Of a stretch of DNA of 64,000 bases, positions 13,338 through 16,300 are shown one piece after another (position 1 is the first letter of the stretch; every line of letters starts with the position of its first letter). The position numbers and the translations under genes are program-made. The notes under the pieces are model-generated. The model did no database searches. It was given only the letters and a program-made list of their open reading frames with translations, and was not told where the DNA came from. The stretch is from the NCBI GenBank assembly GCA_903813345.2, contig CAIIXF020000001.1, positions 15,128,001 through 15,192,000 on the forward strand, written 5' to 3'. The DNA comes from Owenia fusiformis (Eukaryota).

Positions 13338-16300
13338 ATGGATTTGATACAAAATGGATGGTTTAGTGAAATCAATGAACTTTGGCCTGGACAAGCAATG
13401 TCTCTTGCAGTGGAGAAAGTTCTTCACCATGAGAAGTCTAAATATCAGGACATCCTATTGTTTGAAAGGTGAGTTTCAAACCTTTTTCGTATACTATCAT
13501 AGGCCAAGGGTAAAGTAATAGTAAGCCGTATATAGAAGAGACAGGTGAACAACTCTGACTTAGACCACTTGTTAAGATGGAGATTTCAACAATATTTAGT
13601 GTATTGTTTTCAAAAAGCAATGGGGAGTTGATAGAAAATTGATAGTTTGTAGCTCTTACCTAAGATTGAAACTCAGTCAGATGATATAGAGTGAATAATG
13701 CTGTCTAAAAGAGAGAATTTCTGAAAACCTGCAATTGCTTGGCAGGTTCATTAGTAAACAAGTGATCTGATTGGTCACTGCTGACCTCCCTGACCTCCAC
13801 CAGTGACAATCAGTTTCAGCTTGCCAGGCAATTGCAGATATCCATAGTTCTTGTTTTATATGCAGTATTATATGCAGTTTTTAGATAAAGATTTGAAGAA
13901 AACAATGATATAAGTTTGAAAAACACTTTGAAGAAGATTTTGGAGAGATTTGGGAATACAATTTGATACCAGTAAGGAGAACTAGTGCCAAGACTTAAAA
14001 AATTGGAAAAATTTTCAATCTTACTTGTGGACCTGTCTCTTCTATATACAGCTTACTATTACTTTTTCCTTGGCCTATGTATACTATAATAACTATAGGC
14101 TGAAGCCTATGTAATCCTCTTTCAATGAAACATATAGTACTGTTTTAGTGGGACATACATGTATACTGTGAATGGAATGCTCGACCATGTACATGTATGT
14201 GTCCCACACCACAGACACAGGGACAAGAGTTCATCCCCCTCCCACTCACTATGTATTAGGTAGAAAAAAAGACAGGCTCGTATCTCGGGGAATCTTAGCC
14301 TCTACTTTACAGGTAATTGCTCTCATATCTCCCCCTGAAAATTGTCATGCATTATATCTTTTGTCCCAATGCAAGGTTAAGAGAGACCCTATCTGTTGAA
14401 AGACTTATGCCTGACACAACTGCCACCATGTTATTAAGTGTTTTTAAGTTTTGCAAGGATCCTGCCATGACCGTGGTAGTTAATGAAAACACAGGATGAA
14501 ATCCTTTGCTAAGGGCTGATGTGAAAAAGTCAGTCCACCCCAGTGGGGATTGAACCCACGACCCCTCGCTTTCCGGGCAAGTGCTCTACCGCTGAGCTAC
14601 AGGACCGACTGGTTTTTTCACATCAACATTGCATATACAGCATTGCAGCCATGTCTTACATGCCCAGTTTCCTGGACCCCATATGAGTTACCTGTCTTTC
14701 CAGGTTGTCAATCACTCTATTCATGATGTCACGTGGACTTTCCCACGGGCCATTCCCCCTAAGGAGAAGTAGTATTAGTTAATGAAAACACAGGATGAAA
14801 TCCTGTGCTAAGGGCTGATGATTATTAAGTGTTTTTAAGTTTCGCAAGGATCCTGCCATGACCGTGGTAGTGTAATTGTGATAGCCTGATATGACCGAAC
14901 AATGCTATACTATATTGCAAGGCCTGACAATTGACCGTGGTTAAAGCCTGATATGACCGTGACATTAGTTGCAAGTTTTGTCATGACCATGGTAATGTTC
15001 AAGCCTGATATAACCATGACACTGCTATATTATATTGCAAGGCCTGTCATGACCGTGGTAATGTTAAAGCCTTATATGACTGTGGCAATGGTTGTAAGGC
15101 CTGTCATGACCGTGGTAATGTTTAACTCTGATATGACCGTGACAATGTTCACATCCTTGAATGGCTTTATATCTCTAGCAGATTATTTCATTGAATAAGC
15201 AATCCAAAATGCTAATTAAATTTCAAAGGAAGTGCACACACAAAACCATAATTGTATTTTTCAGTAAGTCATATGGGCGTGTGCTGGTGCTTGATGGTGT
15301 GATCCAAACAACTGATAGAGATGAACACTCTTACCAAGAGATGATCACATTCCTACCTCTCAACTCTCACCCTAATCCACAAAAGGTAATTATCCCATTG
15401 TTGTCTCCTCATTCAAAGTGAATGGTTAATCAAATTTTCAAAATGGCTTTTAATGTCAAGTACCATGTGGCACTACATGTATTGTTGTCACATAGTTGTT
15501 TTGTGAGTTAAAAAAGTGGAGAAAATTAAGTTTAAAAATCAAGATAAAAGATAAAGTATTTTTGGGGGAGCTAGGGCAATGCTTACACAATGAGAGATGG
15601 ACTTATTAAGTTATTCTTAAAGCAAAGAAACACCTGTTCTCAAACACTTACAAAACACTTGTGAATAAAGTATATGGCTTGTGCGCGACCTGTTTATTAA
15701 AATAATCCATATAATATACAGAATCATACAACAAATTTCTCTCTCAGTGATTCTCGACTAATGCACCGAGCATTGCTGTGGCCTCTTAGTCATTTAAACA
15801 TTATTATTTCTGAACAAACAATAATAATCAATCTCTCCGAGATTATTTTGATTATTTCAATGCACCAAGCATACGTGGCCTCTGCCATTTGAAAACTACA
15901 TGTATTATATATGCAATAAACTTTTTCAGTCAATGATCAATAAATCTTTGACCTGTTTGACAGCACACATTCTATGTGCAAAGACAATTCAACTTATTCG
16001 TTTATCTCTCTGTTTTCTACTAAATGATGTGAAAAATATTGGTGGCACCTGTAACTTAACTGTGTGCCAAGCATGAACATGAACTGTCACACTTAACAGT
16101 AATCATGGCATTTATAATTTAATAAAGACTGCAAATTTTCAAGTTTCAAGATTACTTTGATAAAATATGATAATGAATAACATGTCTTAATTGTTTTGAA
16201 CTTATGTCAGTTTCGTGGAGACCCTTCTCAAGAAGTGTAAGAAGTACCTAATATATTGGATTTAGATAGGAGGTCTACCTACATCCTAAGCTGAAACTGA

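Follow-up and report, generated by a model that had tools for sequence, protein, structure and literature searches.

A SINE-like insert with head-to-tail redundancy and a long target duplication in Owenia fusiformis, most probably an unusual-looking retroposon copy

The tandem-like short interspersed elements (SINEs) of bivalves carry a tRNA-related module with promoter boxes, occur in many copies with a fixed 3′ end and 5′-truncated forms, and can place more than one unit within a single target duplication, TSD1-(SINE)n-TSD1 (PMC11481361). Here, we describe an insert that resembles them in these respects, located at 14477–14820 within 64,000 nt of Owenia fusiformis DNA (assembly GCA_903813345.2, contig CAIIXF020000001.1, positions 15,128,001–15,192,000 of the forward strand; hereafter the window, numbered from its first letter). 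The insert departs from the bivalve elements in its target duplication, which spans 46–50 bp as compared to 6–18 bp (PMC11481361), and in an upstream partial unit that seems to be the rule in its family and not the exception. Furthermore, unlike tRNA-derived SINEs including the bivalve ones, it has its tRNA part 169 nt inside the unit and carries no A-rich or microsatellite tail. We conclude that the insert is most probably a mechanistically ordinary retroposon copy with an unusual appearance.

In architecture, Penelope-like elements offer the closest parallel. In their partial tandems, too, a full copy directly adjoins a 5′-truncated copy of the same orientation inside one target duplication, and their usual targets are likewise AT-rich (PMC8969392, PMC8557442, PMC3846280, PMC11167929). 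Pseudo-long terminal repeats (pseudo-LTRs) alone can carry foreign sequence in trans (PMC3846280), and multi-copy RNA is usable for Penelope-like reverse transcription (PMC11167929). However, the repeat measures about 200 nt in Penelope-like elements and 45 nt here, and the duplications reported for them are 8–10 bp long or absent (PMC8969392, PMC8557442, PMC3846280, PMC11167929). The insert lacks a hammerhead ribozyme, as does the Naiad clade (PMC8557442), and no Penelope-type reverse transcriptase was seen in the part of the 64-kb window that was scanned (41 of its 77 frames). Animal non-LTR retrozymes (bioRxiv 10.64898/2026.07.22.740005) are similar in that small non-coding units are joined head to tail; here, however, the hammerhead is absent and the family, which has a fixed end, is mostly dispersed. 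Helenus/TRIMp3 (PMC10886601) shares the small size, the direct terminal repeats, and a tRNA-like sequence, but possesses a primer-binding site and a polypurine tract, and the TG..CA ends are missing from the insert.

Architecture of the insert and its target

The 344-bp insert comprises a 299-bp unit and a 45-bp repeat, which corresponds to 1.15 unit lengths of its family (Table 1). Read in the minus sense, which is the orientation of its A and B boxes, it consists of B (the last 45 nt of the unit), region Y from its first base, an inverted-repeat arm, the tRNA-like part, the second arm, and B again. The two copies of B (14477–14521 and 14776–14820) are 98% identical at a spacing of 299 nt and differ at 1 of 45 positions. 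At the head-to-tail joint (14776/14775), the last 45 nt of a unit stand directly against the first base of the full unit, with nothing between them. The inverted repeat (19 nt, 89% complementary) contains an A5/T6 run and encloses the tRNA-like part. The latter was placed on the minus strand both by ARAGORN (14533–14607, GGA in the anticodon position) and by Rfam (RF00005, tRNA, 14535–14606; 44.9 bits, gathering score 29).

The tRNA-like fold is 72–75 nt long and has a short variable region. As read from the Rfam alignment, six of the seven acceptor pairs are possible (two Watson–Crick and four G-U), and one is a mismatch. The unit boundaries at 14477 and 14775/14776 lie 58 and 169 nt away from the fold. 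In this copy, 214 nt precede it (45-nt B, 150-nt Y, and 19-nt arm), and a TTTTT run in the minus sense follows 6 nt behind it. The minus-sense boxes read AGCGG (box A) and TTCAATCC (box B). Serine tRNAs belong to class II and have a long variable arm. Because such an arm is lacking and the boxes are decayed, the tRNA-like part is a decayed module of the RNA polymerase III (Pol III) type and not a working tRNA-Ser gene; a functional gene of this kind is ruled out by the short variable region and an acceptor with only two Watson–Crick pairs.

The insertion is flanked by a direct repeat of host sequence (14431–14480 and 14822–14871; 50 nt, 98% identical, 49/50). Its last four nucleotides, TAGT, are also the first four of the element, giving a 4-nt overlap at the left junction, and the duplication proper therefore amounts to 46–50 nt. 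The right junction carries one extra base (14821). An uninterrupted paralog is present in the window: 14384–14480 aligns to 8727–8823 (89.7%), and 14822–15096 aligns to 8774–9053. As the stretch 8774–8823 matches both 50-nt copies, the target is single at this site. These alignments support the view that a mobile element inserted here and duplicated its target. Regarding the host repeat itself, the copies at 8727–9053 and 14384–15147 are 78–90% identical and begin at 8727 and 14384, the former being preceded by an (AGAAGA)n microsatellite at 8622–8723.

An earlier note on this DNA, made from the sequence alone, had described a ~340-bp insert built from a 299-bp unit plus a repeat of its first 45 bp (in plus-strand terms), and a minus-strand tRNA-like fold with GGA, A and B boxes, and a poor acceptor stem. 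According to that note, the fold lies inside the unit and not at its 5′ end, an inverted repeat with a T run surrounds it, and the 50-bp duplication is single in the homologous repeat at ~8775–8825. All of these observations were borne out by repeat analysis, ARAGORN, Rfam, and the alignments, with 169 nt of the unit lying upstream of the fold. The same note had listed a string of small hairpins. These are indeed present in the sequence, but the folding of the region that contains them is no better than that of shuffled sequence: Y (minus strand) gave z = −1.76, with 12 of 200 shuffles as good, and for the whole unit z was −1.85 (minus strand) and −0.96 (plus strand). Small hairpins of Y are thus not above chance. 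Only the half with the inverted repeat, the tRNA-like part, and the tail stood out (z = −3.11; 2 of 200 shuffles as good).

Rfam searches of 14000–15300 on both strands at E-values up to 10 returned no hammerhead or other ribozyme and, beyond tRNA, only noise-level matches; at gathering scores, the whole window yielded two tRNA matches only. By eye, neither strand of the unit contained a CUGANGA box that leaves enough space for a second stem ahead of GAAA, and the sole CTGATGA at the insert arises from the filler base at 14821. Both searches agree with the earlier remark that no hammerhead core was found. A hepatitis delta virus-like ribozyme at the 5′ end of the unit was also considered and rejected, as the first 7 nt have no first-helix partner by eye and no Rfam match was obtained, although no dedicated structure search was made. 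The proposal of an unrecognised ribozyme as processing signal therefore found no support. The alternative proposal, a tRNA mimic in this role, fares no better, since both unit ends lie far from the tRNA-like part, which consequently does not define the termini.

Table 1. Features of the insert, its target, and the paralogous site.
Feature	Position	Strand	Remarks
Left copy of duplicated target	14431..14480		46–50 nt; last 4 nt (TAGT) common with element end
Tail B, last 45 nt of full unit	14477..14521	−	Hairpin with one mismatch; 14477 is the minus-sense 3′ end of the family
3′ arm of 19-nt inverted repeat	14517..14535	−	Minus-sense TTTTT, Pol III terminator-like; pairs with 14607–14625 in folds
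tRNA-like module with A and B boxes	14535..14606	−	ARAGORN, Rfam
5′ arm of inverted repeat	14607..14625	−	89% complementary
Region Y, 150-nt 5′ part of unit	14626..14775	−	No match to any known family
Upstream partial unit, second copy of the unit's last 45 nt	14776..14820	−	Repeat analysis, read depth
Filler base, one nt, between element and right target copy	14821..14821		Sequence, paralog alignment
Right copy of duplicated target	14822..14871		Repeat analysis, paralog alignment
Empty paralogous site	8774..8823		50 nt once, within second copy of host repeat
Host repeat that took the insertion	14384..15147		Multi-copy; ends in 57–64-bp minisatellite

The element family in public reads

We complemented the analysis of the window by aligning reads from public runs with the same species label, i.e., one raw DNA run (X24), two raw RNA runs (X21 and X22), and one contig set (X1). 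Depth in X24 is the sum of both read directions; for loose ends, six clusters are listed per run, and tandem joints are listed only in part. In X24, the unique flank at 14293–14354 had a depth of 0, whereas the insert reached 1147 at 14479–14509, 1737 at 14510–14540, 1038 at 14541–14571, and 399–559 in every bin of 14572–14819 (Y 399–540, right-hand B 499–559). Owing to this difference (about 400–1700 against 0), the family comprises hundreds of copies or more at ≥85% identity, and the element is not single-copy. No further copy was found within the 64-kb window. The host repeat next to the insert had a depth of 91–134 in X24 (about 90–300 over the host repeat in reads overall), and 19 X1 contigs break at 14383, where this repeat begins.

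Family reads share one end. In X24, 275, 99, and 149 reads (523 in total) break at 14477, 14478, and 14479, respectively, and continue into unlike AT-rich flanks (agreement ~0.4). Positions 14477–14479 are therefore the common terminus of the family and coincide with the left junction of this copy. This is the behaviour of an ordinary retroposon, which the earlier note had named as speaking against its reading, and does not fit the permuted ends that the earlier note had expected from a circular template. Depth rises about 2- to 3.5-fold toward 14477, and the deeper coverage of 14479–14571 suggests many 5′-truncated copies or upstream partial units. A further 105 reads diverge at 14540, which may mark another element with the same 64-nt tail (14477–14540). 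At 14820, no break cluster was present among the six listed for X24 (smallest, 92 reads), and this side may not be a fixed end.

Most family reads deviate from this copy at eight listed places in 344, all of them transitions. Two of these fall into the promoter boxes: 389 of 393 reads carry A at 14591, and 852 of 1081 reads carry C at 14551. In the minus sense, these letters turn AGCGG and TTCAATCC into AGTGG and TTCGATCC, which are the textbook forms of box A and box B. Both boxes are thus mutated in this copy and restored by the family majority. Another difference concerns the tail: family reads have A at 14495 in 79% and at 14794 in 97%, while both B copies of the insert carry the minority G.

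X1 contigs from other loci are collinear with the insert over 14585–14783 and 14527–14668, and the joint between Y and the tRNA-like part is common to contigs from other loci. One contig of 713 nt matches only at 14483–14599, a short form of tRNA-like part plus tail that is compatible with a head-first SINE version, and the match of another contig, of 686 nt, stops at 14776, the boundary between Y and B.

The head-to-tail joint recurs as well. As the right-hand B is as deep as Y and only 174 of 4562 aligned reads fit two places, the junction of B to Y is a feature of the family. In addition, two X1 contigs join 14819 to 14525, and 125 reads that cover B, the linker, and the tRNA-like part from 14484 carry a loose part resembling a diverged end of Y; head-to-tail joints longer than that of this copy thus exist elsewhere. 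With regard to age, the differences between the B copies (1/45), the target copies (1/50), and this copy and the family majority (8 places in 344) all agree, so that the 45-bp redundancy looks about as young as the insertion. Of the earlier suggestion that the element was copied from a circular or tandem template, one part stands, namely that the insert spans more than one unit, joined head to tail; its retrozyme form found no support.

RNA reads bear on the sense of the element. First mates over Y were biased toward the plus strand in X21 (3.0 to 8.3:1) and in X22 (~1.5–6:1), which points to a minus-sense RNA under the usual convention that the first mate is opposite to the RNA strand. A bias of ~9–12:1 in the other direction at 14200–14261 demonstrates that the libraries are stranded. 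RNA depth over Y was ~8–37 in X21 and X22, compared to a DNA depth of ~400–540. The tail hairpin forms a perfect 8-bp stem in the right-hand B; the family A at 14495 and 14794 would give a G-U pair in the minus-sense and an A-C opposition in the plus-sense hairpin, which is weak evidence for the minus sense as it concerns a single site. Taken with the orientation of the boxes and the common terminus, the element RNA would be of minus sense with its 3′ end at 14477. The stretch used as strand control is noteworthy in itself: over ~50 nt of 14200–14261, first mates numbered 165–252 on the minus and 14–29 on the plus strand, both RNA runs show sharp breaks at 14210 and 14258, and the stretch looks like a fragment common with an abundant transcript from elsewhere.

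Motif searches of public metagenome, prokaryote-genome, and viral collections gave no further copy of the element. The tail motif had 0 matches in metagenome, genome, and viral contigs, and none was obtained for the Y motif in the genome and viral contigs. With a motif of the tRNA-like part, at least 126 metagenome loci matched, but these look like ordinary tRNA genes and say nothing about the element: the 138 of 149 BLAST segments with listed ranges lay within 14523–14608, and ARAGORN, applied to seven of the loci, reported Thr, Lys, Ala, and other tRNA genes. In the literature, five 15–17-nt motifs of the element gave no match in a text search, and four 15–16-nt motifs had no match in eight supplementary files of PMC11481361.

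Origin of the insert and rival explanations

In our view, the insert is probably a decayed copy, dead on arrival, from a SINE-like retroposon family that is derived from a tRNA and present in high copy number. The family has the promoter, the copy number, and the common 3′ end of a SINE; its tRNA-related head is not at the 5′ end. From the anatomy of the insert, we infer RNA-mediated copying and a template of more than one unit. A reverse transcriptase provided by another element would nick the plus strand after ...GTGGTAGT, and the 3′ end of the RNA (...ACUA) would anneal to the last 4 nt of that primer. The full 299-nt unit would then be copied, beginning with tail B and proceeding through the stem-enclosed tRNA-like module to Y. 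At the first base of the unit, copying would run into the last 45 nt of another unit, which might either follow within one multimeric transcript or belong to a separate RNA onto which the enzyme jumped. Finally, copying would stop, one base would be added, and the product would be joined to a second-strand break 46–50 bp away, creating the long duplication. The tRNA-like module would represent the Pol III-type promoter of the family or the relic of its head. Both the position of the left junction at the family terminus and the 4-nt overlap point to target-primed reverse transcription that starts at a fixed 3′ end of the RNA, and such an end is favoured since random DNA copying would be unlikely to land at a common family terminus.

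The copy studied here cannot propagate itself. It is dead on arrival because a promoter is missing from the upstream partial unit, mutations affect both boxes, and TTTTT occurs 6 nt after the tRNA-like part; to judge from its sequence, this T5 run would stop Pol III before the tail is reached. In the family at large, a box-A/box-B promoter could yield a full-unit transcript only where a further unit is located upstream, and the head-to-tail habit would then have a function comparable to that of Penelope pseudo-LTRs.

Several points weigh against the explanation we prefer. The head of a classic SINE is its 5′ end, whereas here 169 nt of Y and 5′ arm precede the tRNA-like part and are themselves preceded by a 45-nt partial unit, and a promoter made of box A and box B does not start transcription 169 nt upstream. 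By inspection, the insert lacks the A-rich or microsatellite tail of such elements. No partner long interspersed element (LINE) or Penelope-like element was found, as none of the 41 frames scanned among the 77 window frames of ≥75 aa reached a Pfam cut-off. The window contributes a single copy, and the listed clusters do not place the ends of other copies on the 14820 side, where an AT-rich flank could smear breaks. The listed joint of 14819 to 14525 had 0 raw reads in X24, X21, and X22. Lastly, target duplications are "typically no more than 20 bp" (PMC13295347). At 46–50 bp, the one described here is well above the usual range. The rotifer R9 non-LTR element reportedly makes very long target duplications and would resemble the insert in a target-primed insertion that duplicates far more than 20 bp, but it is autonomous and specific for ribosomal DNA.

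A variant that gives the redundancy more weight is unlikely, though it is the strongest of the remaining candidates. It assumes that the family consists obligatorily of head-to-tail partial tandems, since a full unit can be transcribed from its own promoter only if another unit lies upstream; the promoter, being located within the 3′ third, cannot start 169 nt upstream. Such an element would be moved by a Penelope-like enzyme or by way of a ribozyme-free RNA circle and would leave long duplications. If the partial tandem is the rule, a SINE-like internal Pol III promoter would work like an LTR for the next unit. The element would then be a possible first tRNA-promoter passenger of Penelope-like elements and would bear on how non-autonomous retroelements solve their promoter problem. 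If, on the other hand, the family is an ordinary lineage-specific SINE, its significance is limited to repeat annotation, and the long duplication is an oddity confined to a single insertion.

Slightly less probable than this variant are fixed terminal direct repeats, with every copy reading B-Y-tRNA-B and the whole forming a plus-strand miniature LTR element (TRIM, SMART, or Helenus-like). The tRNA complement would then be a primer-binding relic inside the left repeat, followed by a purine tract before the right repeat. The plus-strand order of repeat, tRNA complement (14 nt inside), internal part, AAGGAGAAG tract 7 nt before the right repeat, and repeat fits this idea, as does a right-hand B that is as deep as Y in the family, and the data would allow a fixed end at 14820. 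However, none of the six listed break clusters of X24, down to 92 reads, lies at 14820, and two contigs and 125 reads run past B into the linker and the tRNA-like part. The repeats neither start with TG nor end with CA (the plus strand reads TAGT...GATG), and the tRNA complement starts 14 nt inside the repeat without a complement of the CCA end. In Helenus, moreover, the tRNA-like part is found in the LTRs and not internally as here, and Helenus and other TRIMs have duplications of 4–5 bp as compared to 46–50 bp (PMC10886601). The improbability grows for a retrozyme-like cycle, in which a circular RNA of ~299 nt or a long tandem transcript undergoes rolling-circle reverse transcription. An exact joint of unit end to unit start with nothing between them, joints of more than one unit at other loci, and the tandem arrangement and Penelope-like link of animal non-LTR retrozymes (bioRxiv 10.64898/2026.07.22.740005) agree with such a cycle. 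Yet the ribozyme searches in Rfam (E up to 10, either strand) and by eye (CUGANGA box, both unit strands) were negative, family copies share a fixed 3′ end next to unlike flanks in place of permuted ends, and the tRNA-like part is remote from the termini. Coverage of Y by RNA reads is low as well, and the listed tandem joint (14819 to 14525) had 0 RNA reads in X21 and X22, although ordinary RNA sequencing may miss small circles.

We assign the same low probability as for the retrozyme-like cycle to a one-off accident, i.e., that most copies are plain Y-tRNA-B and that 45 nt of a second RNA were added here by a template jump. The end-to-end joint, the one X1 contig that stops exactly at 14776, and the minority G in both B copies agree with this, but the right-hand B (depth 499–559) equals Y with at most 174 ambiguous reads, which places a B-to-Y joint in most Y-bearing copies. 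The least probable is a templated insertion at the DNA level, in which a stalled fork or break repair would copy 344 bp from a tandem donor and re-copy 50 bp of the target. This would account for a short overlap or filler base at both junctions and for the long flanking duplication; however, the left junction falls exactly on the family terminus (523 reads), where a random switch is unlikely to land.

Other features of the window

The window looks eukaryotic: it has ~34% G+C, is full of microsatellites and unusually rich in minisatellites, and showed no protein domain above a cut-off in the 41 frames scanned. Among the sub-threshold Pfam matches, zf-RVT at 39543–39938 on the plus strand (E = 0.0093; 17 bits, cut-off 27.5) is a possible retroelement relic, and Put_Phosphatase and TcA_RBD matched weakly at 21384–21740. 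The second tRNA-like match of the window, at 17015–17086 on the minus strand (33.5 bits in Rfam, gathering score 29), probably represents the head of another SINE family. This match was rejected as a relative of the insert, with which it has only a 17-nt box-A stretch in common. A weak direct repeat (11/12; 16895–16906 and 17129–17140) may flank this element but is too weak as a guide to duplication length.

Two pairs of longer direct repeats, at 17381–17680 and 17975–18274 (300 nt, 91% identity, spacing 594) and at 28685–28918 and 29048–29281 (234 nt, 92% identity, spacing 363), may be further partial-tandem or terminal-repeat elements. A 194-bp tandem repeat occupies 9537–10078 (2.8 copies, 89% identity), with a diverged solo unit ~900 bp further on (10739–10932). 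Finally, dense arrays of 43-, 19-, 48-, and 136-bp tandem repeats are located at 21254–22237, 25266–26276, 29422–30004, and 31480–32271, and the 19- and 48-bp arrays recur ~3.2–4 kb apart.

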